Below, in pieces: positions 7,383 to 35,704 of a DNA stretch of 64,000 bases. The DNA is from Sphyrna mokarran (taxonomy: Eukaryota). The notes beneath the pieces are model-generated. The model made no database searches. It saw only the letters and a program-made list of their open reading frames with translations, and had not been told where the DNA came from. The DNA is taken from contig JAGIQG010000043.1 in the NCBI GenBank assembly GCA_024679065.1, positions 1,364,001 through 1,428,000 on the forward strand. The letters run 5' to 3'. The position numbers and the translations under genes were made by a program. The first letter of the stretch is position 1, and each line of letters begins with the position of its first letter.

Positions 7383-7457
7383 TCATTTCCGACCTGCCTT
7401 CTTTTTTCTTTTCTTTTCCAGAGCGACCAGATCCAGGGAGGCGTAGACAGGTCCACT
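7383..7457 (-). pseudogene. Exon 8, terminal coding exon (SGPVYASLDLVALEKKRKKKAGRK*)
   Basis: atatttcag acceptor, phase 0, YxxL motif typical of immunoreceptor tails, TGA at 7383-7385. Confidence 0.8.
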
Positions 7458-7649
7458 CTGAAATATTCACAAATCATAGAGACATTGCAGTGAATCGTAG
7501 AAGTCCGCCAGTGCTGAAGGAGAACATACAGCATATAGATATTTAAAATCACCCTCAACCTCAAACATGTGACATAAAATCATTCGACACAAATTAAGAG
7601 GTAACTAAGCTGCCCATTGTATCCGTGTTGGGTCTTTGAAAGGTCTATC

Positions 7650-7985
7650 CATTTTTATTTTATTCATTCTTGGGACATGGGCTTCGCCCAAACCGAATTT
7701 TCTTATTCGAAGGCAGCTGAGGGTCAATCACATTGTTGTGGTTCCGGAGTTACATGTAGGCCAGATCAATTAAGAATGACAGATTTATTTCCCGTAAAAA
7801 GATAATTGAAGAAGATGGGGTTTTCTGACAATAGTTTCATGGTCATTAGAAGATCATTAATTGCAGATTTTGTTTCACTGAATAAAAATTCAACCATCTG
7901 TCATGTGAGATACGAACTTAGGCCCCTGGAATATAAGCTGAGTATGTAGGTAAATAGTCTTGCACCAAGACGACTAGGTCATCAC
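7650..7985 (-). mobile_element. SINE family B
   Basis: Same core (ACATGTAGGCCAGA..CAGATTT..) and tail. Confidence 0.7.
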
Positions 7986-8097
7986 TTTAACTTTCTGCAT
8001 AATACTCAGCTCTGATCATTGTAAAGATTGGTTATTCTTTCGGCAGTGGCTATTAAATCTGCTTCCATTGGCCTCTACCTCAATTGGAAACATAGCA

Positions 8098-10875
8098 AGA
8101 CCTAATGTTGTGGCCATTTCAGAGACATGGATAAAGCAGGGACAGGAATGGTTGTTGCAGGTTCCAGGGTTCAAATGCTTCAGTCGGAGTAGAGAAGGAG
8201 GTAGAAGGGGGGGAGGAGTGGCATTATTAGTCAAAGACTGTATCACAGTGACAGAAAAGAAGTTTGATGAGGACTTGTCTTTTGAGGTAGTATGGGCTGA
8301 GATTAGAAACAGGAGAGGAGAGGTCACCCTGTTGGGAGTCTTTTATAGACCTCCTAAAAGTTCTAGAGAGGTAGAGGAAAGGATTGCAAAGTCGATCCTG
8401 GACAGCAGTGAAAGTAATAGGGTAATTGTTATGGGGGACTTTAACTTTACTAATATTGATTGGAATAGCTATATCTCTAGCTCGTTAGAGGGGTCAGTTT
8501 TCGTACAAAGTGTGCAGGAAGGTTTTTTGACTCAGGATGTAGATAGGCCAACTAGAGGTGAGGCTACATTGGATTTGGTGCTGGGCAATGAGCCAGACCA
8601 GGTGTTAGGCTTGGAAGTTAGTGAACATTTTGGGGATAGTGACCACAATTCGGTTACGTTCACCTTAGTGATGGACAGGGATAGGCATGAAGCTGGGGGC
8701 AGTAGTTATAGCTGGGGGAAGGGTAATTATGAGGCCATAAGGAGAGAATTAGAGTGCATAGGTTGGACTAGGAAACTACAGGGACTGGGAACATCTGAAA
8801 TGTGGAGCTTATTCAAGGAGCAGATACTGCGAGTCCTTGATAAGTATGTCCCTGTCAGGCAAGGAGGAAATGGTCGAGTAAGGGAACCATGGTGTACGAA
8901 AAAAGTTAATTCGCTGGTTAAAAGGAAAAAATGAGGCTTATGTCAGGATGAGGCTTGAAGGCTCAGTTAGTGCAATGGATAGCTATAGATGAGCCAGGAG
9001 GGAGCTAAAGAGTAAGTTGAAGAGAGCTAAAAGGGGACACGAGAAAACTTTGGCTGATAGGATCAAGGAGAATCCTAAAGCTTTCTTTAAATATGTTAAG
9101 AATAGAAGATTGGTTAGGGCAAGATTAGGGCCAGTCAGAGACAGCAGTGGGAAGTTGTGCGTGGAGCCTGAAGAGATTGGAGAGGCACTGAACAAATATT
9201 TCTCTTCGGTATTCACGCAGGGAGATGTAAATGTAGTTGTGGAGAACACTGGGATGCAGGGTTGCAAACTGGAAATTATGGAAGTAGATAAGGAGGATGT
9301 GCTAGATATTCTTGAGGGTTTGAAGTTAGATAAGTCCCCTGGGCCGGACGGGACTTACCCTAGGAGTCTCTGGGAGGCGAGAGAAGCGATTGCAGAGCCT
9401 CTGGCTCTGATCTTCAGGTCGTCGTTGGTTACGGGTATCATGCCGGAAGACTGGAGGATAGCGAATGTGGTCCCATTGTTCAAGAAGGGGAAGAGAGACT
9501 TTCCGGGGACTTATAGGCTGGTGAGTCTTACTTCTGTTGTGGGCAAAGTATTAGAGAGAATTATTAGGGATAGGATTTATAGTTATTTAGAGAGAAATGA
9601 ATTGATTGGGGATAGTTAGCATGGTTTTGTGATGGGTACGTCGTGCCTTACTAACGTTATCCAGTTTTTTGAAAAAGTGACCAAAGAGGTGTTTGGGGGT
9701 AAGGCAGTTCATGTGGTATATATGGACTTTAGTAAGGCGTTCGATAAGGTGGCCAATGGAAGGCTTCTGCAGAAAATGCAGATCTATGGGATTGAGGGTG
9801 ATTTAGCTAATTGGATTAGGAATTGGCTAGCAGATAGAAGACAGAAGGTGGTGGTTGATGGAAGATATTCATCGTGGAGTTCGGTTACAAGTGGTGTACC
9901 ACAGGGGTCTGTTTTGGGGCCCATGCTGTTTGTAATTTTTCTATATGATCTGGATGAGGGTATTGAAGGATGGATTAGTAAATTTGCGGATGACACCAAA
10001 GTCGGAGGAGTGGTAAATAGTGAAGAGGGGTGTTACAGTTTGCAGAGAGACTTGGACAAGTTGCAGAGCTTGGTCGAGATGTGGCAAATGGAGTTTAATG
10101 CGGAAAAGTGTGAGGTAATTCACTTTGGCAGGAATAACAAATGTGTAGAGTATAGGGCTAATGGTAGGACTCTTAATAGTGTTGATGAACAGAGGGATCT
10201 TAGTGTATATGTGAATAGATCCCTGAAAGTTGGCAATCAAGTCTATAAGGTTGTTAAGAAGGCATCCGGAGTCTTAGCTTTTATTGTAGGGGGATTGAAT
10301 TTCGAAGCCGCAACATCATGTTGCAACTGTGCAAAACTCTAATGCAGCCGCACTTGGAGTATTGTGTGCAGTTCTGGTCCCCGCATTATAAGAAAGATCT
10401 GGAGGCATTGGGGAAGGTACAGAGGAGGTTTACCAGAATGTTGCCTGGCATGGAAGGAAGGTCTTATGAAGAGAGGCTGAGGGATTTGAGGTTGTTTTCG
10501 TTAGAAAGAAGGCGGCTAAGAGGAGACCTTATAAGATGATTAGAGGTTTAGATAGGGTAGACAGTGATAGCCTTTTTTCTAGGATGGAGAAAGCTAGCAC
10601 GAGGGGACATAGCTCTAAATTAAGGGGTGGTGGTTATAAGACGGATGTCAGATGTAGGTTCTTTACCCAGAGGGTGGTAAGGGTATGGAATGCCCTGTCT
10701 GCGTCAGTTGTAGATGCGCCAAGTTTGGTGCCGTTTAACAGGTTAGTAGATAAGTTTATGGACGAAAAGGGAATGGTTTAGGTTGTAGGGTCATTGCTTT
10801 TTCCGAATTGGTTGGCGCGACATCGAAGGCCGAAGGGCCTGTTCTGCGCTGCAATGTTCTATGTTCTCTGTTCTA
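8098..10875 (+). mobile_element. CR1 LINE, near-complete ORF2 (EN+RT) with stops and frameshifts
   Basis: ORFs 8068..10781 contain [26 protein letters not shown] and FADD; ends in the tail. Lies in the last intron of the VJ-C1 gene. Confidence 0.96.
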
Positions 10876-11254
10876 AAGGACAGGAACAAAAGCTGGCCAT
10901 TCAGTCCATCGTATCTGCTCCCCCAATCGAGTTCATGACGATTCTGATATGAGAGTCATCAACTTCACGTTCCATATTTATTCCCAAAATCCTTTACTTC
11001 CTTACTGTTTAAGAATCTGTTCATCTCAGCCTTCAAAGTGTTTAACGTCCCAACGCGTATAGAGTGACAAAGAAGCAGAATTTGAAAACCAACTTAACAA
11101 AGGCATCACTAACATTTATTCAGAAAACTATTTTAATGAATCTATCAATTCGATTGGTGTTACACAGACAAAACAATTACCATGTTTCTCCGTATGTTAT
11201 GTTCAAAGTTCTTTGACCACGTCTCCGCATTTATCAACTCAATTCCCTTCAGAA

Positions 11255-13582
11255 TCATAGAATCCCCATGGTACAGAATGAGACCATTCATCAAATCGAG
11301 ACTGTACGGACTCTCTAAGGGTCACTCTTCTCCAGGCCTGCTAATCAACCCTATTCCCATAACCCATAATTGGTGTACGAAAAGAGTTGATTTGCTGGTT
11401 AAGAAGAAAAAGGAGGCTTATGTCAGGATGAGGCTTGAAGGCTCAGGTAGTGCAATGGATAGTTATAGATTAGCTAGGAAGGAGGTAAAAAGTGAATTGA
11501 GGAGAGCTAAGAGGGGACACGAGAACATGTTGGCTGATAGGATTAAGGAGAATCCTAAAGCTTTCTTTCGATATGTTAAGAATAGAAGATTGGTTAGGGC
11601 AAGATTAGGGCCAGTCATAGATAGCAGTGGGAAGTTGTGCGTGGAGCCTGAAGAGATTGGCGAGGCACTGAATAAATATTTCTCTTCGGTATTCACGCAG
11701 AGTGCTGGGAATGTAGCTGTGGAGAGCACTGAGGTACAGGGTTGCAAATTGGGGAGTATTGGAGTAGATAGGGAGGATGTGTTAGAAATTCTCGAGGGTT
11801 TGAAGTTGGATAAGTCCCCTGGGCCGGACGGGATTTACCCTAGGATTCTCTGGGAGGCAAGAGAGGAGATTGCAGAGCCTCTGGCTCTGATCTTCAGGTC
11901 CTCGTTGGTTAGGGGTGTGGTTCCGGAGGACTGGAGGATAGCGAATGTGGTCCCATTGTTCAAGAAGGGGAAGAGCGACCTTCCAGGGAATTATAGGCCA
12001 GTGAGTCTTACTTCTGTTGTGGGCAAAGTATTGGAGAGAATTATTAGGGATCAGATTTATAGTTATTTAGAGAGAAATGAATTGATTGGGGATAGTCAGC
12101 ATGGTTTTGTGAAGGGAAGGTCATGCCTTACTAACCTCATTGAGTTTTTTGAGAAGGTGACCAGAGAGGTGGATGGGGGTAAGGCGGTTGATGTAGTATA
12201 TATGGACTTTAGTAAGGCTTTTGATAAGGTGGCCCATGGAAGACTTCTACAGAAAATGCAGATGTGTGGAATAGAGGGTGATTAGCTAATTGGATTAGAA
12301 ATTGGCTGGCAGATAGAAGACAGAGGGTGGTGGTTGATGGGAGATATTCATCGTGGAGTTCGGTGACGAGTGGTGTGCCTCAGGGGTCTGTTTTGGGGCC
12401 CCCGCTGTTTGTAATTTTTATAAATGATCTGGATGAGGGTATTGAGGGATGGATCAGTAAATTTGCAGCTGATACTAAAGTTGGTGGTGTGGTAGATAGT
12501 GAAGAGGGGTGTTTTAGTTTACAGAGTGACTTGGACAAGTTGCAGAGCTGGGCCGAGAGGTGGCAAATGGAGTTTAATGTGAAAAGTGTGAGGTAATGCA
12601 CTTTGGCAGGCACAATAAATGTGTAGAGTATAGGGCTAATGGTAGGGCTCTTAATAGTGTTGAGGAAACGAAGGATCTTGGTGTATGTGTCAATAGATCC
12701 CTGAAAGTAGGCAGTCAAGTGGATAAAGTTGTTAAGAAGGCTTATGGAGTCTTAGTTTTTATTGGTAGGGGGATTGAATTTAGGAGCCGCAGCATCATGT
12801 TGCAGCTGTACAAAACTCTAGGGCGGCCGCACTTGGAGTATGGTGTGCAGTTCTGGTCGCCACATTATAAGAAAGATGTGGAGGCATTGGAGAGGGTACA
12901 GAGGAGGTTTACTAGGATGTTGCCTGGTATGGAGGGCAGGTCCTATGAAGAGAAGTTGAAGGATTTGAGGTTGTTTTCGTTAGAAAGGAGGCGGCTAAGA
13001 GGGGATCTTATTGAAGCATATAAGATGATTAGAGGTTTAGATAGGGTGGACAGTGATAGCCTTTTTCCTAGGATGGAGAAAGCTAGCACGAGGGGACACA
13101 GCTTTAAATTAAGGGTTATGAGTTATAGGACGGATATCAGAGGTAGGTTCTTTACTCAAAGAGTGATTAGGGAGTGGAATGCCCTGCCTGCAGCTGTTGT
13201 AGATGCGCCAAGTTTGGTGGCGTTTAAGAGGTTAGTGGATAAGTATATGGATGAGAAGGGAATGGTTTAGGAGGAGGGGCATTGCTTTTTATTTTGGTCG
13301 GCACAACATCGAAGGCCGAAGGGCCTGTTCTGTGCTGTATTGTTCTATGTTCTATGTTCTAACCCCAAACATTAAACACGACTAATCCATCTAACCTGCA
13401 CATCTTGGGATACTAAGAGTCGGTATAAACTACACTTGGGAGGGAACAATTGCACCCAGAGGAAACCCACATAGATAAGATGAGAGCATGCAAACTCCAC
13501 ACAGACTCTCATCCAAGGAATTGAACTCGGGTTCCTGGCGCTGTGAAGCAGCCATGCTAACCACTGTGCCACCGTACCGCCG
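11255..13582 (-). mobile_element. HE1-like SINE split by the CR1 insertion (11255-11370 and 13361-13582)
   Basis: Head GGCGGTACGGTGGCACAGTGGTTAGC at 13582->; tail resumes at 11370->11255. Confidence 0.8.
11371..13360 (+). mobile_element. CR1 LINE, 5'-truncated, inserted into a SINE
   Basis: RT motifs in ORFs 11182..13270; a short TAACCC repeat occurs near both junctions. Confidence 0.96.
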
Positions 13583-14159
13583 TTGATCCTTGTGTTTTCC
13601 CACTATAATCAAAATCAGCCACTTACAATCAAATATCTTGGCGCTATTGAACTACATGGCAGATAAAGCAGAGAAAGAGGGCATTCCCCATCATACCTGT
13701 GCTATCCAGAAAGCTCGCTGTCTATTCCAATCCATAGTCAGCATCTAATCTGTAGCTTGTGCATTGTACATGGGGATTCAAGTCCCATTTATCACTCATT
13801 AAAATTCCACTATCGAAAATAAACAGCTAATTTGAAACACCAGCCACCGTGCAATAATTACGTATCTTACTTGTGTAAACACTTCATCGTTGACAGCCAC
13901 TTGTTGAAATTGTATTCATCGAATTTAATATAGTAAATGTGGCAGCGCCTTTTCAAACAGTATGATCCCAGAAGGAAAATATTATTAGTGACCGGGTCAC
14001 ATTGTTGCATTTTTAGATCTTTGTTGATGGTGTAAATATCAGCAAGAACACTGAACCACAAGCACGGGCAGAATTATTCTCACTTCCAACCACACAGGCA
14101 CAGAAAGACATACACGTGCAAACACAGGCACACAGACAGAGACAGAAATTCAAATGCAC

Positions 14160-14166
14160 ACGCCCG

Positions 14167-14200
<34 letters not shown>
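14160..14200. repeat. (CG)n(CA)n microsatellite
   Basis: Direct reading. Confidence 0.95.
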
Positions 14201-14261
14201 ATTTTCTAACCGAAGCATTAACTCAATCGCTGTATAATTAGTTGGAAGACCCGCCGAGATA

Positions 14262-14810
14262 CATAGAACATAGAACATAGAACATTACAGCGCAGTACAG
14301 GCCCTTCGGCCCTCGATGTTGCTCCGGCCAGTGGACCCTCTAACCTAAACTATTCCAATATCATCCATGTGCCTACCACCGAACATTTGAATGCCCCCAA
14401 AGTAGGCGAGTCCACAACTGCTGCAGGCAGGGCATTCCACGCCCTCACCACCCTCTGTGTAAAGAACCTGCCTCTGACATCCGTCCTATAACTACCACCT
14501 CTTAATTTAAAGTTATGTCCCCTCGTGTTGGTCATCACCATCCGAGGAAAAAGGCTCTCAGTATCCACCCTATCCAATCCCTTGATCATCTTAAACGCCT
14601 CAATTAGGTCACCGCGTAACCTTCTTCTCTCTAATGAAAATAACCTCAGGTTCCTAAGCCTTTCCTCATAAGGCGTTCCCACCATACCAGGCAACATCCT
14701 GGTAAACCTCCTCTGCACCCTTTCCAATGCTTCCACATCTTTCTTATAATGTGGCGACCAGAACTGTACGCAATACTCCAAGTGCAGCCACACCAAAGTT
14801 TTGTACATAT
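14262..14810 (-). mobile_element. CR1 3' end (second subfamily)
   Basis: ORF 14350..14907 C-terminal motifs; (CATAGAA)n tail. Confidence 0.93.
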
Positions 14811-14965
14811 TCTGGTAAAATATGTTTTCATTCACATGTGGATGCTTCAGGCAGTGAAACTGCTCTCTGATAGCCACAAGAAACGTCCAGCATGGAACAT
14901 CCTGCACCTTATACCAAAACCCGGAAATTGTCTATACTGTATTGGAATATTTGGAAAGCACTTAC

Positions 14966-15015
14966 CTGAACTGCACCGGCTTTTGTTCCCATTCCATATG
15001 TTTGGCGGCAATTGT
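14966..15015 (-). pseudogene. Exon 7, cytoplasmic (DNCRQTYGMGTKAGAVQ)
   Basis: ctttgttacacag acceptor, consensus CAG|GTAAGT donor, 50 nt, phase 1->0. Confidence 0.72.
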
Positions 15016-15439
15016 CTGTGTAACAAAGTGGAAGATTGCAATATAAACATAATCCTCTACCGGCTAAGTTATGATTAATTTGAGACAAGTGCACAAATGA
15101 TTTCCTGTTGAACCAATGCATCGATTGACCAAATGCCTCAATGGGTGTCAATCCAAAGAAGTTCCTCACGTACCCCAGTGTTATCCTAATACATACACGC
15201 TCCTTCAGTACATCAACTGCCAAGAAATACTTCAATGGACCCCAGTCCACCAATGGATGGAGAAGGCATATCTATCCCACATGCCGTCTATTGCCCCACT
15301 GACATTTCAGTGCTAAAAGTGAGAGGCAAATGTGTACTTTTCTATGGGAGCAGCAAGGGATTAATTGAGAAACAGTTTGCGGGCTGGAACTACACTTAAT
15401 TTCTTCCATTTTAGCATTTCTTTGTCACACCACCAAGGA

Positions 15440-15915
15440 CCCATATTAAATTCCACAGTTAGGTTATTGCCTGTGTGAAATGTGCACTTCGTCCCTTGTA
15501 CCTGCGTGGATTTCCTCTAAATGATTCCATTTCCTTTGAGTCCTCTGGTTTTCTCTCACGGTCAAAAGATGTATAGGTTAGGTTGGTTGGCCAAGCTAAA
15601 TGGCCCTTGACTCCTCAAATATTAGCAGGTTAGATGAAATGGCTATGTCGAATTAAATCATAGTGTCAAAAAATGTGCAGTTTAGGTGGATTGACCATGC
15701 TGAATTGTCCCTTAGTGTCCAATAGTGACCAGAATAGTTGAACTGGCCAGATTCCTGGTTGTAAATGCCCAAACATTTGCAGGTAAATTGGATTGGCTAT
15801 GTTGAATTGCTCCTTAGTGTCCACAGATGTGCAGGGTTACGTGGACTGATCATTCCCAATTTTCCCTTACTGTCATGGGATGTGCCATGCGCTCGTTAGC
15901 GTCAGGGTTACGGGG
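15440..15915 (+). mobile_element. HE1-like SINE with an internal ~52-bp tandem expansion
   Basis: About six degenerate copies of GATGTGCAGGTTAGGTGGATTGGCCATGCTAAATTGCCCCTTAGTGTCCA at 15567-15880. Confidence 0.75.
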
Positions 15916-16043
15916 TTAGGGGGTGGCTGTGATTGTTACCACCTTATTCTCAATAGACCAACTGTCCTCCTTCTGTGCTGTTAGGATTCTGATATGTATA
16001 TTCAATGATGCTGAACCTGTGCCAATATTTGAATGCAACTTAC

Positions 16044-16096
16044 CCGTTTGTCTGTCTGTTTGCACCCCTCTGTGTGATGTCTCTCTCAAGCTAAAA
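16044..16096 (-). pseudogene. Exon 6, cytoplasmic (IFSLRETSHRGVQTDRQT)
   Basis: Polypyrimidine tract plus ccag acceptor (an alternative in-frame AG lies 6 nt further in), G|GTAAGT donor, phase 2->1. Confidence 0.72.
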
Positions 16097-16269
16097 CTGG
16101 ATAAGGCAATAGAAAAAAGAATAAGCAAGAGGCACATCTGGCAAATCCTGGCCGAGAAGCCAGAAGTGCACCAGCAGAAGTACGCCAGTGGGGTTGAATT
16201 GGACTGAACACAGTATTTAATAGACAGATAGTATTTGGGGTGAATTTTGTAAATGGTTCGGTTACTCAC

Positions 16270-16300
16270 ATTTCATTGCAGCCTCTCTTAGCTCGCTTTT
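16270..16300 (-). pseudogene. Exon 5, cytoplasmic (EKRAKRGCNE)
   Basis: cttgtttcag acceptor, GTGAGT donor, 31 nt, phase 1->2, open frame. Confidence 0.72.
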
Positions 16301-16398
16301 CTGAAACAAGACACCATGACCAACAGTAGATAAATATATGAGGAAAATCAATTCAATGAATAATGCTGATATTATCCCTCCTGAAAATTAATCCTTAC

Positions 16399-16500
16399 CG
16401 GTTCTGCTTTTTTTCCAAATGCAAATGGAAAAGAGCAGCCAGAATAGAATCGCGATCGCCAGGACAGTGATGGCAATGGGATGTTCCAGATCACACCATC
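16399..16500 (-). pseudogene. Exon 4, connecting peptide and transmembrane segment
   Basis: ttttttccctctgtag| GWCDLEHPIAITVLAIAILFWLLFSICIWKKSRT |GTAAGG; phase 1-1; uncharged 21-aa TM followed by basic stop-transfer residues. Confidence 0.87.
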
Positions 16501-16944
16501 CTACAGAGGGAAAAAATATTGAAACTGTTGCTAGGTCAAGTCATTTTTTTCTGTGCTTGAAAGATGTCAAACTGAACACAGGCAGAGTGAACCCTTGAGA
16601 TTCAATGTTGTTTTTTTTTGCCATCACCGAATCTCCTATGATGGCTATAAGTTCATTTTAGAGCTGGGATTCCTGCGGAGGAACTCACTATCTGACTCCA
16701 CCAAACTTGTCCACTGTCTGCAAAGCATCGTTCAGGATTGTGATGGATTACTTCTTATTTGCTTACTTGGGTGCATCTCCAAAAACACTCAAGAAGCATG
16801 GCACTACCCAGAATATAAAAAAAACACGTGTTTGGCACCACACCCACTTCTGCCACTACTCAACACTCAGAAGCGTCAGTGTGCACCATCTGCGAGATGT
16901 GCTGCATTTGTTCAGCAAAGATACGTAAATAGATTATAATACCA

Positions 16945-18355
16945 CTAGACCATCAAACCATAAGGCATAGCAGAAGAATGCGGCCTCTCGTTCCATCGAG
17001 TGTTCTCCGCTATTCAATCATGGCTGATATTTTTTCTCATCCTCATTCTCCTCCATTCATCCCATCTCTGTCTTAAAGATGCTCAGTGACTTGGCTTCCA
17101 CAGCCTTCTTCGGGATATAGATCCATAGATCCGCCAGTCTCCGGCTGAAGAAACTCCGACTTAACTTTGTTTTAAAGGATTGCTCGTTTAGCCTGAAGTT
17201 ATGGTCTGTGATTCTAGTTATTTTTTTTCTACTAGTGAAACTTCCTCGCCACGTCCACTCTATCCAGACCTCGCTGAATCCAATAAGTTTCAATAAGATC
17301 ATCCACCCACCCCCATCCTCCTAAACTCCAATGAGTACATACCCAGAGTCCTCAACCATTCCTCAGATGACAAACTTTTCATCCCAGGGATCATTCTTTC
17401 TTCAAGGTCTGCAAATAGTTCCTTAGATGAGGGACCAAAGTCTGTTCATGATATTCCAAATGTTTTCCGACCAGAGCCTCATACATCATCAGAAGTACAT
17501 CCCTGCTATTGTACTCTAGCCCTCTCAACTTGAATGCTAACATTGCATTTGACATCCTAGCTACCGATTGAACATGCACGTTAACCTTAAGAGAATCTTG
17601 TACGCTGGTAGCCCCTGGCGCCATTACTTCTTGAAAGATCACCACTAATGCCTCCACAATTTCATAAACTATCACCTTTAGAGTATTGGTCTGTAGTCCA
17701 TCTGGTCTAGGTTATTCACCTGCATTCACAACATGCAGTTTTCCAGAACCTTGTTTTTAGCGAAGGCCATTACATTCAACTGTGCCTGTTGACTGCCCTG
17801 GAGCCCTAGCATCCCCCTGGTGTTTTTCCCAGTGAATGCTGATGCAACGTAACTATTCAGTTCGTCTGCCACTGCTTTCTTTCCTATTATTACTTCCGAG
17901 CCTCATTTTCGAATGGCACAATAGTGACTATTTTTGCCTCTGTCATACTGTTTAAAACATTGAAAAAAACGCTCTTCCCATTTCTTCTATATTATTAGCA
18001 AGCTAAATTTCCTCTTCTCCCCTCTTATTGCTTTCTTATCTGTCCACTACTCGCTTTTAAAGGCTTCCAAATGGTCTGGCTTCCCAATAATGTTTCAATA
18101 GTCATCGTCACTTTGTATGTTTTCATTTGCTTTTATACTGCTTTGACTTCCCTCGTCAGCCATGGATGCCTCGCCATCATCTGACCATGTTTCCTCTCCG
18201 TTGGAATGAATTTCTGTTGTTTTTCCCGAATAATTCTCAAAAAACTCTTGCCATTGCAATTCCACTGTCTTCCCTGCTAGGCTCCGTTTCCAATCAACTC
18301 TGGCCGCTGCTCCCTAATGGGTTTTAGTTCCCCTTACTCAAGTATAATGCCGTTA
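16945..18355 (-). mobile_element. Old degraded CR1 fragments
   Basis: ORFs 17057..17302 and 17391..17675 carry eroded RT C-terminal motifs; continues at about 19556-20250. Confidence 0.75.
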
Positions 18356-19555
18356 CATAGAACATAGAACATAGAACATTACAGCGCAGTACAGGCCCTT
18401 CGGCCCTCGATGTTGCGCCAGCCAGTGGACCCTCTAACCTAAACTATTCCAATATCATCCATATGCCTATCCACCGAACATTCGAATGCCCCCAAAGTAG
18501 GCGAGTCCACAACTGCTGCAGGCAGAACATTCTACGCTCTCACCACCCTCTGTGTAAAGAACCTGCCCCTGACATCCGTCCTATAACTACCACCTCTTAA
18601 TTTAAAGTTATGTCCCCTCGTGTTGGTCATCACCATCCGAGGGAAAAGGCTCTCACTATCCACCCTATCCAATCCCTTGATCATCTGATACGCCTCAATT
18701 AGGTCACCCCGTAACCTTCTTCTCTCTAATGAAAATAACCTCAGGTCCCTCAGCCTTTCCTCATAAGGCCTTCCCATCATACCAGGCAACATCCTGGTAA
18801 ACCTCCTCTGCACCCTTTCCAATGCTTCCACATCTTTCTTATAATGCAGCGAACAGAACTGTACGCAATACTCCAAGTGCGGCCGCACCAAGTTTTGTAC
18901 AGTTGTAACATAACCTCACGGCTCCTAAATTCAATCCCTCTACCAATAAAAGCTAACACACCGTACGCCTTCTGAACAACTTTATCAACCTGGGTGCCAA
19001 CTTTCAAAGAGCTATGTACTTGTACCCCAAGATCCCTCTGCTCGACAACGCTATTAAAGGTCCTTCCATTAACCCTATATTTCATATGCCTGTTATTCCT
19101 ACCAAAGTGAATCACCTCACACTTATCCATATTGAATTCCATTTGCCACCTCACGGCCCAGCTCTGCAACCTATCTATGTTCCTCTGCAAACTGTAACAT
19201 CCATCCTCGCTATCTACAACTCCCCCCACTTTGGTATCATCAGCAAATTTACTAATCCAACCCCCTACACCCTCATCTAGGTCATTTATAAAAGTAACAT
19301 ACAGCAGTGGCCCTAAAACAGATCCTTGAGGTACACCACTTGTAACTGCACTCCAGGTTGAATATTTCCCATCAACCACCACCCTCTGTCTTCTATCAGC
19401 TAGCCAATTCCTAATCCAAACTGCTAAATCACCTTCAATCCATGCATCTGCACTTTCTGCAGTAGCCTACCATGGGGAACCTTATCAAACGCTTTGCTAA
19501 AATCCATATACACTACATCAACTGCCTTACCCTTATCTACCTCTTTGGTCATCTG
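18356..19555 (-). mobile_element. CR1 3' part (second subfamily) nested in an older CR1
   Basis: ORFs 18532..19382 ([19 protein letters not shown]) and tail. Confidence 0.94.
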
Positions 19556-20251
19556 ACTCCAGCTTCTCCTGTTCAAACTGGAAGACAAATCCTATAACAT
19601 TGTCGCCACTGCTCCCTAAGGTTTCCATCACCTTGAGCTCCCTAATCAAGACTGCTTTACTTCATATCGCTAAGTCTAGAATTGCCTATTCTCTAGTAAG
19701 CTCTGTACAAGCTGCTCGAAACAAAATCTCTTTGACATTTCACAAATGTATTTTCTTGGGATCCATTACTTACCTAATTTCCCCAGTCCACCTGCATATT
19801 GAAGCCCCCCACCCATGATTATTGTAATATTGCTATTGTTATATGCCTTTCCGATCGCCTGATTTATTGTCTGCCCCACATTCTGACTATTGCGAGGGAA
19901 CCTGTACATAACTCGCTTCAGAGTCTTTTTTTTAACCTTAGAGATTCTTCAGTTCCATTTTTTTTGGTCCTATATCACTTCTCGTATAGAGTTTACTTCG
20001 TTCCTTACAAACAATGCAAGTTTGACAAGTCCTGCCATTTGAATCTGACACATATCATTGGGTATTTAGATATCAGCCCTGAACTCATTGCAGCCATACC
20101 CTTGTCCACATTGTATCAGCCAATTTCAATGTGTGCAACAAGCCTATTTACCTTGTTCCATGCAGTGCATGGATTTAGGCATGAGACCTTCTGTCTTGCA
20201 TTGTTCACCTCCCGTCGCATACTAGTCGCTTGTTATACTCTGGCTGAGGTT

Positions 20252-21862
20252 AGATGGACATTAAGAAAGAAGATGTTTTGGAACTTTTAAATTGCATCAA
20301 GGTAGATGAATCGCCAGGACCGCATGGGATGTATCCCAGGTGAGGGAAGAGACTGAAGAGCCTCTGGCGATGAGCTTGGCGCCGTCGATGGGGACAGGAG
20401 AGGTTCCGAAGGACTGGAGGATGTGGATGTTGTTTCCATTTTCAAGAAAGTGAACAGGAATAGCTCGGGAAATTACCGACTGGTAAGTCTGGCCTCAGCT
20501 GTTGGTAAGTTGATGGAGAGGATCCCAGGGAAAGGATTTATGAACATTTAAAGAAGTTTAGCATGATCAAAAGTTGTCAGCATCGCTTTGTCAAGGACAG
20601 GTCGTGTCTGAGAGCTTAGTTGATTTTTTGGAAAATGTGACTAAACACTTTGAAGAAGGAAGAGCGGTGGATCTCGTTTATATTTTTGATAAGGTCCCCC
20701 AGGCAACATTTGAAAGACATGGGATCCCAGGGGCTGTGGGTCCACAACTGGCTTGCCTGCAGAAGGTAGAGAGTTGTTGTGAATGGGTCTTCTCTGCATG
20801 AAGGTCGGTTACCAGTGGAGTGCCCCAGGGATCTGTTCTACGACCCTTGCTGTTTGTTATTTTCATAAATGACCCGGATGAGGAAGTGGAGGGGTGGGTT
20901 TGTAAGTTTTCCGATGACACGAAAGTTGGTTTTGTTGCGGATAGTCTGGGGGAATGTCAGATGTTGCAGGGAGACATAGATCGGATACAAGACTGGGCGG
21001 AGAAGTGGCAGATGGACTGAGTGCAGATCTGGGATCCTTACTACTCGAAAGATGTGGAAGCTATTGAAAAGATGCACAGGCGATTTACAGGGATAGAACA
21101 TAGAACATAGAACATTACAGCACAGAACAGACCCTTCGGCCTTCGATGTTGCGCCACCAATATAAAAAGCAATGACCCTCCAAACTAAACCATTCCCTTC
21201 TCTTCCATACACTTATCAACTAACCTCTTAAACGCTACCAAACTTGGCGCATCTACAACAGCCGCAAACAGGGCATTCCACTCCCTAACCACCCTTTGGG
21301 TAAAGAACCTACCTCTGATATCCGTCCTATAACTATTAACCCTTAATTTAAAGCTGTGTCCCCTCGTGCTAGCTTTAAAGCTGTGTCCCCTCGTGCTAGC
21401 TACTCGTGGATGTTCCCTGGATTGAGTGGCATGCCTTATGAGGATAGATTGAGGGAGCTAGGTATTTTCTCCCTGGAGAGACGAAGAATGGGATGTGACC
21501 TGATAGAGGTTTATCAGTTGTTGAGAGGAATAGCTAGCGTGGATTCTCAGAGGCTATTTCCCAGATCTGAAATGGTCGTTACGAGATGACTCATATTTAA
21601 GGTGCTGGGGACTAGGTACAGAGAAGACGTCAGGAGTAAGTTTTTCACTCAAAGGGTGGTGAGTGAGTTCAATCGTCTGGATAGTGGAGTTAAATTTGCT
21701 GGGTTCTTTTAAAGGACTTCTGAATGAGTTCATGGGATGCAATGAGACTGAGTGATATAGAAAGGCCTGCTAGGTAGGGATATGTTCGGCGCAACTTGTG
21801 GCCCAAAGGACCTGTTAATGCTGTAGTGTTCTATGTGCTATGTTTAATGTTTTATATGTTCT
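20252..21862 (+). mobile_element. Degraded CR1 ORF2 with a nested minus-strand young CR1 3' end (about 21094-21400)
   Basis: RT motifs at 20574-21020 and 21410-21750; inverted tail insert with a duplicated AAAGCTGTGTCCCCTCGTGCTAGCT. Confidence 0.88.
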
Positions 21863-23514
21863 AGATTGCTGCCAGTTACTGTACTCTATTTTATTGCGTG
21901 GTCTGCAAAGTTTACTACCTTCACTGGAGCCCTCAGCTCCACTAAACTGCACTTCCTCCCTGTCCATTAACTTCGATTTTTTTAGCCCCATCTCCACCCC
22001 AAATTATACGAATCACCAGGAATCTGTTCCCAACACAATTCAGATGAAGACCATTCCACCTGAACAAGTCCCCTCTTCTCCGATAAAGGCGTCAATGTCC
22101 CATGAATTCAAATCCACTTTTTTTCCCTCCAATCATTGTCGTACACATTTACCTCCTTAATCTTATTGACCCTGTGCCAATGCTCAGGTAGTAATCGAGC
22201 GATTATTACCTTCTTGGTTCTGCTTTTTTCTTAGCTCCTAGATGTTCATGCTCCCTAAGCAGAAATGTTGTTCTTGTTCTATCTATGTTATTGGTACCAA
22301 AGTGGTCAACGACCACTGGGGCCTGTATCCTTCCACTGCAAGTACCTTTGCAGCTCAGCGGATGTGACATGATCCCGAGCACCAGGCAGCCTACACAACA
22401 TTCAGATTTCTTGATTCTGGTCACAGAGGGCAGTGTCAATGTCTCTTACTGTACAATCCTAAATTCGGACTACATTTTGTTTCTCCCACGACTTGAATGG
22501 CACCGTCCCAAACCTACAATCATGTCCATCTAGAAGGACAAGAACAGCAGATACCTGGAAACACTACCACATACAAGTTCCCCTCCGACCTTTTCACTAT
22601 ACTCACTTGGAAATATTTCAGCCATTCTTTCGCAGTCTTTTGGTAAAGATTCTAATATTTCCTATCTAACAGCTCTGCAAGTCAACCTACTACTCATGGA
22701 CTATAGCGGTTTAAGAATGCAACTCACCACTATCTTCTGAAAGGCGACTAAGAATAGGAAATAATTGCTGGCGTAGCCAACGACCCATGTGTGGCGCGAA
22801 TACCGTTGAAAAGTGGTACCCATATACTCGGGAGTGAAATAAAAATATGCAATACACGGAATAGCTGGCAATCTGTGAATGAACAGGATGGAATGAATGA
22901 CATTACTCTTACGAGTAGGGATCAGTAATTTGACAGGCCTGACAGGATAGTTCCACATTCAGTGTGTATCAGATTGTATGATAACAGCAACACACCAACA
23001 CTTATTTGAAAACTGAATCATAGAACTATACAGGCCTATGGTGTCCTCGCTGAAAGATCTGTTGAAATTTTGCTACTCTACATATATTTTTCTCACAGCC
23101 TTGTACATTTCTCTGCATCGAGTCCAGATGCAATTCCAGTTGTTACACTTATTGTTACATATGCTTCCATTGGCCTTTCATAACACCGTATCGAACAGCG
23201 GGAAATAATCTAAAAATCCAAAATCTGTAAAGCTTTTCTCCTGACATTGGAGTGCAGGTATTAGCAATTATAAATTATACAGGTATCAGATGGAAACTAA
23301 GGATTGTGAAGTGAGGTTCTGGGAAATTGAGCTGATGCCTCATAGAGAGAAAAAAAATAACAACTCCTGTTTGTTTTCTGAACGCAAAGTGTATCCGGAT
23401 AGGAGTTATCCCAATTCAATTCCGAAATCCATTGTCTAAAACGGGCCGTTGAAGCAGATTCAACAATAACTTTTAACAAGGAAAACAGAGAATTTTATGT
23501 TGATTGAATGGTGT

Positions 23515-23803
23515 ACTGTAGGTTTGCATTAACACGGCAACATCAGCAATGTTGTAAAGTCCAATAGTGTGAAAATCCCCTAAACGCCACACTCTAGCGC
23601 TTGCTCAGGTACACTAGTGGAAAATTTGTCGAAGCAAATGCACCTAGACAGCATGCCTTTCGCACTCTTGGAGGAAACAGGAGCAACCGATGAAACCCAC
23701 ACAGACGTGGGAAGAACATGCAGTGAACCAAGTCTGGAATTGAACTGTAGTAATAGGCGCTGTGAGACTGCAGTGCTAACCACTGTGCTACAGTGCTGCC
23801 CAT
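23515..23803 (-). mobile_element. HE1-like SINE
   Basis: Head GCACAGTGGTTAGCACTGCAGTCTCACAGCGCC on the minus strand. Confidence 0.8.
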
Positions 23804-24048
23804 ATTGCGACTTGAAGGGGAAATGTTTAAAGTTTGAAGTTATAATTTAGTTTCACAAGGCGGCTTACATGAACACTGTCATGACGTTACTGTGAAATTC
23901 CCCAAGATCCGGTTATAGGGATAAAATAGTTAAAATTGGAGGTTTCTATCAGTCAATTCACAATCTTCAGTATCTTAGTATGTGATATATTGCCCCCAAC
24001 TGAACAGGAGTTGAATTCAAAACACAGTTGTGAAATTTACCAACTCAC

Positions 24049-24366
24049 CCGCTGCTTTGGAGAACGATACACTCTTTCTCCAGTATTTTCCTGGAATCCC
24101 CAGTTGAACAATGCAAGTACAGACAGTACCGCTTCTCCAAACGTCCGCTGACACCATTATATGACTTTTGATGCTGCAGGTTTCGTCTTCTTCCCTTGTC
24201 CCGGGATCACTCGATCCCTCAGTGAGCTGGCCGGAAATATTCCAGAAAATAACAATCTGGTTGGAGGAAACTCCACTCACCAAACACACTAAGGGCACGG
24301 TATCATTCACATCCACCTTAGCCAGCGGGATAAACACCTGCAAAGCCGTCTTCGTGGTAGAACTGT
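24049..24366 (-). pseudogene. Exon 3, C1-set Ig domain
   Basis: DSSTTKTALQVFIP...VPLVCLVSGVSSNQIVIFWNISG...VSADVWRSGTVCTCIVQ...KSVSFSKAA, with C1 hallmarks LVCLVSG, W and WxSGxxxxC. Donor G|GTGAG. The in-frame acceptor reads ctgtccGG instead of AG at 24367-24368. Confidence 0.92.
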
Positions 24367-24447
24367 CCGGACAGATTGGGACAAAGTTATTTTACACAAA
24401 ATGCTAATGCCCTGCACAATCTGAATTAAGTACACTTGCTCTCTTAC

Positions 24448-24780
24448 CTCCAACCAGGAGTGTGTGTCCATTCGGGAACGGTGTAGTCCCAGCTATATCG
24501 AAACAGTAGTATGTACCTGAGTCATTCTCGTGGACATTGCGAATTCTCAGAAGAAAAGCATTTGCTGGCTTGCCTTTTTCAGAAATATATTTGCAGCCGG
24601 CCCCAGTACAAGATGCAGTCTTTACTCGCATCGGGGCTTCACCCAAACGCTGTTTGTACCAAACACAGTGTAACACCAAAAACACTTCAGAAGTCTCATA
24701 GTAGAACTATTCCACTGTCTGGCCCACTTCAGTTGTTCTTGTGAAGGGAATTTGAGACAGAGAGGAGTCGGATTCTGTAA
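24448..24780 (-). pseudogene. Exon 2, germline-joined VJ-type Ig domain
   Basis: Acceptor ctttctag and donor G|GTAAGA. Translation FTESDSSLSQIPFTRTTEVGQTVE*FYYETSEVFLVLHCVWYKQRLGEAP...LLRIRNVHENDSGTYYCFDIAGTTPFPNGHTLLVG contains WYKQ, DSGTYYC and a J-like F-x-x-G-x-x-L-x-V. TAG at 24707-24709; the expected B-strand Cys reads TAC (Tyr) at 24701-24703. Confidence 0.92.
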
Positions 24781-24869
24781 CTAGAAAGATTGTTGTTACA
24801 TTACCACCGATTTTGAAATACCTGAAGCGGTCTCTTCAAAAAAAAACTCGCCTGTATATAAAGCTTATC

Positions 24870-25140
24870 TTTTTCTTTACACAAGGAGGCTTACATGAAC
24901 ACTGCAATGAAGCTGTGGTGAAAATCCCCCGGTCGCCACACTTGGACGAATATTCAGGCACACGGACGGAGAATGTAGCACGGCCAATGCACCATCAATG
25001 CACGCCTTTCAAACTGTGTGCACCCGCAATAAACACACACAGATGATGTGGACCCGCACAGGCAGTGGCCCAAGCCGGGAATTGAAACTCGATTCCTGTT
25101 GCTGTGAGGGATAAGTGCTAAGCAGTGTTGCACCCTACGG
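24870..25140 (-). mobile_element. HE1-like SINE in intron 1 of the VJ-C1 gene
   Basis: Degenerate head, B-box and TTCATTGCAGTGTT tail. Confidence 0.7.
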
Positions 25141-25351
25141 CTCAATCTCATTGTTGTTTGTCATTATTGTTGGTTAAATGTATTCTTCATTTTCTGTCTT
25201 TGCCTTTTATCAGTAGAAGCAGAAAATGAATCCATATTCTCTGGTCAAATTCCTTCATCTGATCACTGGTTCACGTTTTCTCCTTAGGCAAGTCTCCTTT
25301 CTGGTTTGTAAAAGTGATATTGCTTAAAATTCCCTCCCATTTCTTACTTAC

Positions 25352-25406
25352 AGTGAAGCCATGCTACTCGGAAAATGAGTATCACAGATAAGGAGACTTC
25401 CATCAT
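25352..25406 (-). pseudogene. Exon 1, signal peptide MMEVSLSVILIFRVAWLH
   Basis: ATG at 25406, hydrophobic 18 aa, phase-1 donor T|GTAAGT at 25351. Confidence 0.8.
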
Positions 25407-26775: not shown

Positions 26776-28738
26776 CTTATGTCAGGATGAGGCTTGATGA
26801 GGCTTGAAGGCTCAGGTAGTGCAATGGATAGCTATAGATTAGCTAGGAAGGAGGTAAAAAGTGAATTGAGGAGAGCGAAGAGGGGACACGAGAAGATGTT
26901 GGCTGATAGGATTAAGGAGAATCCTAAAGCTTTCTTTCGATTTGTTAAGAATAGAAGATTGGTTAGGGCAAGATTAGGGCCAGTCATAGACAGCAGTGGG
27001 AAGTTGTGCGTGGAGCCTGAAGAGATTGGTGAGGCACTGAATAAATATTTCTCTTCGGTATTCACGCAGAGTGCTGGAAATGTAGCTGTGGAGAGCACTG
27101 AGGTACAGGGTTGCAAATTGGGGAGTATTGTAGTAGATAGGGAGGATGTGTTAGAAATTCTCGAGGGTTTGAAGTTGGATAAGTCCCCTGGGCCGGACGG
27201 GATTTACCCTAGGATTCTCTGGGAGGCAAGAGAGGAGATTGCAGAGCCTCTGGCTCTGATCTTCAGGTCCTCGTTGGTTACGGGTGTGGTTCCGGAGGAC
27301 TGGAGGATGGCGAATGTGGTCCCATTGTTTAAGAAGGGGAAGAGAGACCTTCCTGGGAATTATAGGCCAGTGAGTCTTACTTCTGTGGTGGGCAAGGTAT
27401 TGGAGAGAATTATTAGGGATAGGATTTATAGTTATTTAGAGAGAAATGAATTGATTGGGGATAGTCAGCATGGTTTCGTGAAGGGTAGGTCATGCCTTAC
27501 TAACCTCATTGAGTTTTTTGAGAAAGTGACCAGAGAGGTGGATGGGGGTAAGGCGGTTGATGTAGTATATATGGACTTTAGTAAGGCTTTTGATAAGGTG
27601 GCCCATGGAAGACTTCTACAGAAAATGCAGATGTGTGGAATAGAGGGTGATTTAGCTAATTGGATTAGGAATTGGCTGGCAGATAGAAGACAGAGGGTGG
27701 TGGTTGATGGGAGATATTCATCGTGGAGTTCGGTGACGAGTGGTGTGCCTCAGGGGTCTGTTTTGGGGCCCCTGCTGTTTGTAATTTTTATAAATGATCT
27801 GGATGAGGGTATTGAGGGATGGATCAGTAAATTTGCAGATGATACTAAAGTTGGTGGTGTGGTAGATAGTGAAGAGGGGTGTTTTAGTTTACCGAGTGAC
27901 TTGGACCAGTTGCAGAGCTGGGCCGAGAGGTGGCAAATGGAGTTTAATGTGGAAAAGTGTGAGGTAATGCACTTTGGCAGGAAAAATAAATGTGTAGAGT
28001 ATAGGGCTAATGGTAGGGCTCTTAATAGTGTTGAGGAACAGAAGGATCTTGGTGTATGTGTCAATAGATCCCTGAAAGTAGGCAGTCAAGTGGATAAAGT
28101 TGTTAAGAAGGCTTATGGAGTCTTAGCTTTTATTGGTAGGGGGATTGAATTTAGGAGCCGCAGCATCATGTTGCAGCTGTACAAAACTCTAGTGCGGCCG
28201 CACTTGGAGTATTGTGTGCAGTTCTGGTCGCCACATTATAAGAAAGATGTGGAGGCATTGGAGAGGGTACAGAGGAGGTTTACCAGGATGTTGCCTGGTA
28301 TGGAGGGCAGGTCCTATGAAGAGAGGTTGAAGGATTTGAGGTTGTTTTCGTTAGAAAGGAGGCGGCTAAGAGGGGATCTTATTGAAGCATATAAGATGAT
28401 TAGAGGTTTAGATAGGGTGGACAGTGATAGCCTTTTCCTAGGATGGAGAAAGCTAGCACGAGGGGACACAGCTTTAAATTAAGGGGTATGAGTTATAGGA
28501 CGGATATCAGAGGTAGTTTCTTTACTCAAAGAGTGATTAGGGAGTGGAATGCCCTGCCTGCAGCTGTTGTAGATGCGCCAAGTTTGGTGGCGTTTAAGAG
28601 GTTAGTTGATAATTATATGGATGAGAAGGGAATGGTTTAGTTAGGAGGGGCATTGCTTTTTATTTTGGTCGGCACAACATCGAAGGCCGAAGGGCCTGTT
28701 CTGTGCTGTATTGTTCTATGTTCTGTGTTCTATGTTCT
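26776..28738 (+). mobile_element. CR1 LINE, 5'-truncated, young (562-aa RT ORF, one frameshift near the end)
   Basis: ORF 26794..28482 with full RT motifs; CTAAAT at both ends; nearly identical to the 11371-13360 copy. Confidence 0.97.
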
Positions 28739-33401: not shown

Positions 33402-35265
33402 ATAGAACATAGAACACAGAACATAGAACATAGAACATTACAGCACAGAACAGGCCCTTCGGCCTTCGATGTTGCGCCGACTAATATAAAAAGCATTGCC
33501 CCTCCAAACTAAACCATTCCCTTCTCTTCCATATACTTATCAACTAACCTCTTAAACGCCACCAAACTTGGCGCATCTACAACTGCTGCAGGCAGGGCAT
33601 TCCACTCCCGAACCACCCTTTGGGTAAAGAACCTACCTCTGATATCCATCCTATAACTATCACCCCTTAATTTAAAGCTGTGTCCCCTCGTGCTAGCTTT
33701 TTCCATCCTAGGAAAAAGGCTATCACTGTCCACCCTATCTATACCTCTAATCATCTTATGTGTTTCGATTAGGTCCCCTCTTAGCCGCCTCCTTTCTAAC
33801 GAAAACAACCTCAAATCCCTCAGCCTCTCTTCATAAGACCTGCCCTCCATACCAGGCAACATCCTGGTAAACCTCCTCTGTACCCTCTCCAATGCCTCCA
33901 CATCTTTCTTATAATGCGGGGACCAGAACTGCACACAATACTCCAAGTGCGGCCGCACTAGAGTTTTGTACAGTTGCAACATGACGTTGCGGCTCCGAAA
34001 TTCAATCCCCCTACCAATAAAAGCCAAGACTCCATATGCCTTCTTAACAACCTTCTCGACTTGACTGCCTACTTTCAGGGATCTATGCACATACACACCA
34101 AGATCCCTCTGTTCATCAAGACTACTAAGAATCCTACCATTAGCCCTATACTCTACACATTTATTATTTCTGCCATAGTGCATTACCTCACACTTTTCCA
34201 CATTAAACTCCATTTGCCACCTCTCGGCCCAGCTCTGCAACTTGTCCAAGTCCCTCTGCAAACTATAACACCCCTCTTCACTATCTACCACTCCACCGAC
34301 TTCAGTGTCATCTGCAAATTTACTAATCCATCCTTCAATACCCTCATCCAGATCATTTATAAAAATTACAAACAGCAGGGGCCCCAAAACAGACCCCTGA
34401 GGTACACCACTTGTCACCGAACTCCAAGATGAATATCTCCCATCAACCACCACCCTCTGTCTTCTATCTGCTAGCCAATTCCTAACCCAATTAGCTAAAT
34501 CACCCTCTATCCCATACATCTGCATTTTCTGCAGAAGTCTTCCATGGGCCACCTTATCAAACGCCTTACTAAAGTCCATATATACCACATCAACCGCCTT
34601 TCCCCCATCCACCTCCTTAGTCACTTTTTCAAAAAACTCAATGAGGTTAGTAAGGCACGACCTACCCTTCACAAAACCATGCTGACTATCTCCAAACAAT
34701 TCATTACTCTCTAAATAACTATAAATCCTATCCCTAATTATTCTCTCCAATACTTTGCCCACAACAGAAGTAAGACTCACTGGCCTATAATTCCCTGGAA
34801 GATCTCTCTTCCCCTTCTTGAACAACGGGACCACATTCGCTATCCTCCAGTCCTCCGGAACCACACCCGTAACCAACGACGACCTGAAGATCAGAGCCAG
34901 AGGCTCTGCAATCTCCTCTCTTGCCTCCCAGAGAATCCTAGGGTAAATCCCGTCCGGCCCAGGGGACTTATCCAACTTCAAACCCTCGAGAATATCTAGC
35001 ACATCCTCCCTATCTACTTCAATACTTTCCAGTTTGCTACCCTGTACCTCAGTGTTCTCCATAACTACATTTACATCACCCTGCGTGAATACCGAAGAGA
35101 AATATTTATTCAGTACCTCTCCAATCTCCTCAGGCTCCACGCACAACTTCCCACTGCTGTCTATGACTGGCCCTAATCTTGCCCTAACCAATCTTGTATT
35201 CTTAACATATCTAAAGAAAGCTTTAGGATTCTCCTTAATCCTATCAGCCAAAGTCTTCTCGCGTC
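33402..35265 (-). mobile_element. Young CR1, 5'-truncated, uninterrupted 580-aa RT ORF, nested in a plus-strand CR1 tail (33339-33401 and 35299-35378)
   Basis: ORF 33509..35251; the host tail resumes at TCCACTGATCGGCACAACATCG. Confidence 0.97.
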
Positions 35266-35704
35266 CTCAGATTCGTTCATTAGATTCATTAGATTCGTTC
35301 CACTGATCGGCACAACATCGAGCGCCGAAGGGCCTGTACTGTGATGTAATGTTCTATGTTCTGCGTTCTATGTTCTACATCCAATTGCCAACCCGATAAC
35401 ACTCCACACTGAGTACACTGCCATGGTTAGCACTGCTGCCTCACAGCGACAGGGGCCTGGATTCGATTCCCGGCTTGGGGCACTTTCTGTGAAATGTTTG
35501 CATATCTCCCCGTATCTGCGTGGGTTCCTGAAATCAATGACAATAAATCAGCCATTGATTACTGCAAATAAATAAATCATGAGATTGGAATGTTAACCGC
35601 ACAAACCAGAAATGACCGCGGAAATTGTTGCAAGGCTATATACCATGGGAATAGTTTTGGGAATGAACTGATTTTGAGATGGTCTCAAACATAAAGAGAC
35701 TATA

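Follow-up and report, generated by a model that had tools for sequence, protein, structure and literature searches.

A broken type-A copy within a family of non-rearranging VJ–C1 genes in the shark Sphyrna mokarran

Introduction

Receptors in which a V domain already joined to its J-like end precedes a C1 domain, without rearrangement, were reportedly described as PRARP1/2 by Fu et al. 2019 and as amphibian VJC1 by Ohta et al. 2019, the former being, it is said, a gene pair in chicken. Here we examine a gene of similar layout (the window copy) in the shark Sphyrna mokarran, located on the minus strand of a 64,000-nucleotide stretch of DNA (the window; G000:C1027:1364001-1428000). The likely explanation, in our view, is that it is a broken copy of one of two types, A and B, of a non-rearranging VJ–C1 family, the intact members of which would be germline-encoded inhibitory receptors.

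One source counts PRARP among the joined-VJ receptors and gives NITR, SIRP and NKp30 as further holders of a joined VJ (PMC11599192). According to another, UrIg and UrIg2 of elasmobranchs possess a non-rearranging single-exon VJ followed by C1 domains, form disulphide-linked dimers and are automatically annotated as immunoglobulin light chain (IgL); each is a single gene (three C1 domains in UrIg, nine or more in UrIg2) that lies in the major histocompatibility complex (MHC) or the immunoglobulin heavy chain (IgH)/T-cell receptor (TCR)αδ complex, with expression in liver and gill (PMC12227049). A term search of the available text of the UrIg2 paper (PMC12227049) gave no occurrence of PRARP or of ITIM (immunoreceptor tyrosine-based inhibitory motif). 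In the literature, we found no description of a shark cluster of VJ–C1–transmembrane (TM) genes; Fu 2019, Ohta 2019, Flajnik 2023 or their supplements may list shark members. The shark family is already modelled in databases and apparently little described.

Structure and lesions of the window copy

The window copy comprises eight minus-strand exons, from 25406 down to 7383 of the window, that sum to 1,017 nt (338 codons and a stop):

25352..25406, minus: exon 1, leader, 55 nt; ATG and GT donor, kept in paralogues
24448..24780, minus: exon 2, V with joined J-like end, 333 nt; Pfam V-set; extra Cys pair of type A; B-strand Cys absent
24707..24709, minus: premature in-frame TAG, codon 43, in V
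24367..24447, minus: V–C1 intron, 81 nt; acceptor GG in place of AG
24049..24366, minus: exon 3, C1 domain, 318 nt, frame open; Pfam C1-set, E 2.9e-08; within the family clade (99/95)
16399..16500, minus: exon 4, stalk Cys (GWC) and uncharged TM segment, from sequence and paralogues
16270..16300, minus: exon 5, tail, 31 nt; kept in paralogues
16044..16096, minus: exon 6, tail, 53 nt; acceptor and donor kept in 7 of 7 aligned copies
14966..15015, minus: exon 7, tail, 50 nt; kept in paralogues
7383..7457, minus: exon 8, GPVYASL tyrosine motif, basic end and stop; kept in paralogues
7978..13270, plus: two decayed retrotransposons of the long interspersed nuclear element (LINE) type in the last intron; endonuclease and RVT_1 Pfam matches

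The nearest paralogue shows colinear matches to all eight exons (80–91% identity; in a separate comparison, the V of exon 2 is 74% identical to that paralogue), and exons 1–5, 7 and 8 are also kept in further paralogues. The V-set match of exon 2 (E 1.2e-05, just under the cut-off) comes from the portion downstream of the stop. A further exon was looked for between exons 7 and 8 and not found, the conserved blocks there being non-exonic.

A preliminary description, made from the letters alone, had claimed a complete eight-exon chain, and much of its anatomy holds. The sequence of exon 2 bears out the leader-preceded, prejoined V–J without a V–J intron and the 8-residue loop resembling complementarity-determining region 3 (CDR3): V and J-like end share one exon, the second Cys and the Phe are spaced by 8 residues and the J-like end reads FPNGHTLLVG, with no clean FGxG. 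The C1 assignment was confirmed by Pfam, and the GWC stalk, the uncharged TM and a tail of about 75 residues were seen, the tail being of 74 residues built from four small exons. The proposed absence of a recombination signal sequence (RSS) also stands, with no RSS-like site near the V of the window copy in a loose scan that placed a site after YYC in 6 of 7 rearranging-type V segments used as controls; among 75 family units, the same scan gave scattered weak matches in 14, never after the YYC of an intact V.

Completeness was not upheld. The V carries the premature TAG, and although the V–C1 intron has the claimed 81 nt, its 3′ end reads CCGG rather than CCAG (33 of 34 type-A copies have AG there), leaving 13 of 14 splice sites canonical. 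The next AG, 4 nt beyond the lost C1 acceptor, shifts the frame into a stop, and none of the alternative in-phase AG acceptors preserves a whole V or a whole C1: those that avoid the stop cost at least 32 V residues, and the first open in-phase AG for C1 costs 26. Given the TAG and the lost acceptor, the window copy is unable to encode a receptor, and the test of open frame and splice sites speaks against a functional gene. The ratio of non-synonymous to synonymous substitution (dN/dS) of its V and C1 against the nearest paralogue is 0.62, close to the family values of 0.46–0.59; together with the 13 canonical splice sites, this suggests recent loss, and the window copy is very probably a recent pseudogene. 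A short-read contig of 579 nt from run X1 (24331–24909) spans both lesions and has two differences from the assembly. As position 24834 accounts for one of these, an assembly error can explain no more than one of the lesions.

The V of the window copy also lacks the B-strand Cys. Because this Cys is likewise absent from six further type-A V exons with an open frame (G000:C1027: 1010654, 1043501, 1143607, 1158937, 1308634 and 1651073), we regard this as a trait of a sub-lineage and reject it as a lesion specific to the window copy. When type-A V domains are aligned, a further conserved pair of Cys appears in the C′–C″ region; this pair may stand in for the lost disulphide.

A cluster of two alternating types

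Searches with C1 and V exons, whose counts are lower bounds, and 1.29 Mb of C1027 DNA gave 73 joined-VJ and C1 units at 0.61–2.85 Mb of C1027; copies on small contigs were left out. Type A, to which the window copy belongs, accounts for 34 units and type B for 39. In 53 of the 73, both V and C1 are free of lesions (52 in the census, and one B unit after its C1 had been read). Distinct V proteins number 21 of 25 in type A and 23 of 27 in type B, the others being identical, and assembly duplicates may inflate the unit count. The type switches at 53 of 72 neighbour steps, compared with 36.3 ± 4.2 on shuffling, a value reached in 0 of 20,000 shuffles; neighbouring units differ in strand and in spacing, and of the 11 divergent pairs of neighbours only 5 are A/B. 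Apart from two units, V–C1 introns measure 81–185 nt, against about 4 kb in the germline-joined IgL copies of this genome. The J of type B reads FGNG, and its last exon encodes TLYARL; stalk Cys and last-exon tyrosine motif are present in both types. The cluster probably evolves by birth and death, with the window copy among its dead members.

Two arrangements stand apart. A lone divergent A/B pair lies head to head, 20 kb apart, on a 26.5-Mb scaffold (G000:C894:2351060-2387535), its B chain being a divergent subtype common to catshark and manta ray. At G000:C1027:1171536-1219805, the nearest same-strand TM exon to a type-B V–C1 (1.219 Mb) is 46 kb off, and an entire type-A gene lies between the two on the other strand; the sequence would fit a nested gene or an inversion breakpoint.

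Among 22 database type-A proteins with a TM, the segment is uncharged in 18, of which 14 carry the YASL motif; the other 4 combine an Arg close to the start of the TM with a short tail that lacks YASL. Of the 29 type-A TM exons in this genome, 26 encode an uncharged segment. Type-B TM matches carry Arg 6 or 7 residues past the stalk Cys in 5 of 22 cases; for the 2 of these that were covered in full, no tyrosine exon occurs in 9.5 kb. These five exons (G000:C1027: 622516, 1057873, 1325974, 1987251 and 2678941) are candidates for activating chains, although no V or C1 belonging to the exon at 622516 occurs in the DNA examined. As some members possess a transmembrane Arg, adaptor-free signalling would not apply to the whole family. 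The tyrosine motifs are P-x-YASL in type A and T-x-YARL in type B. The ITIM consensus has a hydrophobic residue at position −2 from Tyr, and such a residue is present in ray, Heptranchias and most bony-vertebrate members. From these sequences, we infer that the family would consist mostly of inhibitory receptors with some activating partners.

Relatives and phylogenetic position

Database proteins comprise 30 of type A and 15 of type B from many shark species, named Ig kappa, lambda or heavy chain-like or uncharacterized. Mislabelling as IgL had been predicted, and the Ig kappa and lambda light chain names bear this out. In full-length type-A models of 334–343 aa from other sharks, V and C1 are followed by a TM and this YASL tail, which likewise supports the earlier linking of the C1 exon to these TM and cytoplasmic exons. 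In Heterodontus, Cetorhinus, Mustelus and Carcharodon, the scaffolds that carry A and B proteins match in length; in Mobula, the two have consecutive accessions. A profile search of proteins, in which names were obtained for 30 matches, recovered relatives in rays, chimaera, bichir, sturgeon, paddlefish, gar, eel, coelacanth and lungfish and, among tetrapods, in caecilian, frog, turtles, lizard and alligator; none of the family members named among these 30 is from a mammal or bird. In turtles, a single scaffold carries two types, with several copies.

In a C1 tree of 74 rows and 106 columns, all 53 family rows, from sharks to turtles, form one branch (99/95) that excludes IgL, IgH, TCRβ-like, UrIg-like and MHC domains, and one SIRP- or tapasin-like C1 also falls outside it; we assigned these outgroup labels by resemblance. 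A single clade of type A and IgL is rejected (p-AU 0.0006, approximately unbiased test), in a test made after the tree was known and on the hypothesis of the preliminary description. The trees were built without the C domains of TCRα, γ and δ, a certain SIRP or a named PRARP. A V tree of 66 rows unites shark type A with chimaera, lungfish, paddlefish and one tetrapod type (94/96). The AlphaFold model of a Heterodontus type-A chain is weak (pLDDT 57.5); Foldseek returned Fab chains only, mostly light chains, at 18–27% identity, and the best 60 matches of a sequence search of the PDB were all antibody chains. Used as an outgroup was a locus (G000:C1548:107523520-107525789, L156) with two tandem single-exon VJ domains, which we take to resemble NKp30.

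Comparison with known receptor systems

With PRARP/VJC1, as reportedly described, the shark family shares a non-rearranging joined VJ, C1, stalk Cys and TM, as well as two linked types and relatives in bony fish, amphibians and reptiles. Its tyrosine motifs may correspond to the reported ITIM or switch type, with shark type A departing from the ITIM consensus at −2 and many non-shark members conforming to it. Copies of the type in the window have the corresponding structural features (one-exon VJ, no RSS, single C1, stalk Cys, TM). The shark cluster differs from the reported chicken pair in its roughly 73 units, many pseudogenes and Arg-TM variants. No named PRARP occurs among the 120 of 213 matches listed. 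Orthology of the shark family to PRARP is quite likely, its members most probably work as PRARP-type receptors do, and the likeness to PRARP/VJ-C1 genes put forward earlier fits by layout and by the C1 clade with reptile, amphibian and fish V–C1 proteins.

UrIg and UrIg2 resemble the shark family in their one-exon VJ with C1 and in their mis-annotation as IgL; identity with them was rejected, given that the shark family has one C1 and that the UrIg-like C1 falls outside its clade. TCR chains and the germline-joined IgL lambda of sharks share the V–J–C1 layout, and TCR chains also possess a stalk Cys. The shark family differs in its missing RSS, mostly uncharged TM, long tyrosine-motif tail and separate C1 clade, and IgL has no TM. 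An Ig light chain was accordingly rejected (C1 outside the IgL clade, A with IgL rejected, TM present), as was a TCR chain (no RSS, mostly uncharged TM, long tail; TCRβ-like C only in the tree). Clustered birth-and-death genes with inhibitory tails beside short-tailed Arg-TM forms are also a feature of NITR, SIRP, NKp30 and KIR–LILR. However, NITR-like (P0171 examined) and NKp30-like proteins have no C1 after V, and the SIRP ectodomain is V–C1–C1, whereas the shark family has a single C1. We know of no NITR, SIRP, NKp30 or KIR–LILR system consisting of two alternating chain types.

Genomic setting

A separate scaffold, C1016, opens with DNA resembling a type-A intron, followed by a broken type-B gene, with no further family member up to 180 kb; it carries DAP3 and a weak PRCC match (29 residues, E 5.9e-4), which we take to be human 1q22-23 genes, a setting that may link the family to DAP3 and PRCC. 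PRARP/VJ-C1 genes are reportedly located in a region like human 1q21-23. Nicastrin lies on another scaffold, unlinked, and a scan of open reading frames (ORFs) at C1027:0.40–0.61 Mb and C894:2.33–2.43 Mb gave no recognizable framework gene.

In the window, 17 kb from the window copy, lies an IgL C exon relic (42712-43035, plus) with a GG acceptor and a frameshift, the two parts of which are 68% and 56% identical to its best match, whale shark IgL P0170 (sigma-related in the C1 tree). No V for this relic was found in the window, and a genome search with P0170 gave no C match above 50% among the matches listed. The scaffold that carries P0170 matches that of whale shark type-A P0025 in length (10,821,110), a hint that an IgL isotype and the cluster have stayed linked. 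A second, 15-codon fragment of the same IgL C lies at 41224-41268 (plus), and a J-like stretch ending in a GT donor at about 42390-42421 (plus), some 290 nt before the relic; no RSS was found upstream of this stretch. Most long ORFs of the window are LINE-type reverse transcriptase frames, further ones being at 26791-28482 (plus), 33509-35266 (minus) and 18777-19466 (minus).

Discussion

Assuming that intact A and B chains fold as V–C1, the stalk Cys would join two chains into a TCR-shaped dimer, preferably A–B with homodimers possible, the two V domains of which could bind varied ligands. Once phosphorylated, the tyrosine of the last exon, which lies in an ITIM-like motif in A and in a switch-like one (TxYxxL) in B, would recruit SH2 proteins such as SHP-1/2, and the Arg-TM minority that lacks the tyrosine motif may instead pair with an adaptor carrying an immunoreceptor tyrosine-based activation motif (ITAM) for activation. 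Variability is highest in the loops: entropy is 1.2–1.6 bits in type-A loops compared with 0.6–0.75 in framework, and 1.6–1.7 bits in type-B loops compared with 0.85–0.9 in framework regions (FR) 1 and 3 (FR2, 1.3). One FR2 position has Pro in 20 of 21 A and Met or Ile in 20 of 23 B chains, which we take to resemble VL versus VH interface residues; by this analogy, the contrast fits an A–B dimer. That such a dimer is obligate or preferred would fall just short of an even chance.

Several observations weigh against the reading of the family as inhibitory VJ–C1 receptors with paired chains and of the window copy as its dead member. Averaged dN/dS exceeds 1 solely in type-A CDR3 (1.10), which does not amount to a demonstration of positive selection. 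The shark type-A motif P-x-Y-A-S-L lacks the hydrophobic residue at Tyr −2, and in 3 of 29 type-A copies in this genome an Arg close to the start of the TM goes together with a retained tyrosine exon. The V tree splits the family rather than recovering one clade, and joins B to the second tetrapod type weakly (89/82) in a group that also holds TCR V. Alternation of A and B is also expected from tandem duplication of any adjacent pair, without binding. Presence in the X1 contig is certain for one lesion only, and the Sphyrna mokarran copies are known from DNA alone, not from RNA or protein.

The same observations bear on the alternatives. The tandem-duplication argument leads to a rather unlikely scenario in which A and B are independent single-chain or homodimeric receptors, as in SIRP or NITR, and alternate as descendants of a duplicated neighbour pair; each type does have its own tyrosine motif and its own Arg-TM variants, neighbours vary in strand and spacing with only 5 of 11 divergent pairs A/B, and the counts are unequal (34 and 39), but both types are adjacent in sharks and a ray, two types occur in caecilian and turtle, and the FR2 residues are complementary (VL-like and VH-like). 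With respect to origin, it seems improbable that the family goes back to a germline-joined IgL or TCR gene with an acquired TM and tail and not to a pre-RAG precursor: although the fold search yields mostly light chains among its Fab chains, an IgL C relic sits inside the cluster, type B has a clean FGNG J and family V domains mix with TCR V, the C1 clade stands apart from IgL, IgH and TCRβ, type A does not group with IgL and the V–C1 introns are far shorter than in germline-joined IgL copies. Descent from a very early rearranging gene is possible.

As for the window copy itself, an intact gene in the species, with the two lesions as assembly errors or one individual's null allele, is improbable. 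The remaining splice sites and frames are all intact, dN/dS is not relaxed and X1 may be the source individual; however, the lesions are two independent substitutions, the X1 contig can depart from the assembly at one of them at most, and about 20 of the 73 cluster units are broken too. The earlier proposal of an innate-type receptor built of VJ–C1 parts is therefore retained for the family (a non-rearranging VJ–C1–TM–tail protein outside the IgL and TCRβ clades) and withdrawn for the broken window copy.

A more far-reaching scenario, which we regard as unlikely though worth stating, is a germline two-chain, TCR-shaped system in which about 25 A and about 28 B chains would give hundreds of V–V binding sites with no need for RAG, each of the two types including inhibitory as well as activating chains; the A/B split would be as old as jawed vertebrates, and the cluster, still carrying an IgL locus, may preserve a heterodimeric state ancestral to rearranging receptors.

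To our knowledge, few paired receptors of the natural killer (NK) type are known in sharks. UrIg and UrIg2, the best-studied candidates for pre-RAG receptors, are homodimers made mainly in liver and gill (PMC12227049). The significance of the present finding rests on the family, as the window copy itself is a dead gene. Many shark, turtle and lungfish database entries named 'Ig kappa light chain-like' are not antibodies, and the existence of a large two-type VJ–C1 family whose variability is CDR-like allows a direct test of whether V domains paired as heterodimers, and signals were switched on and off, without rearrangement.

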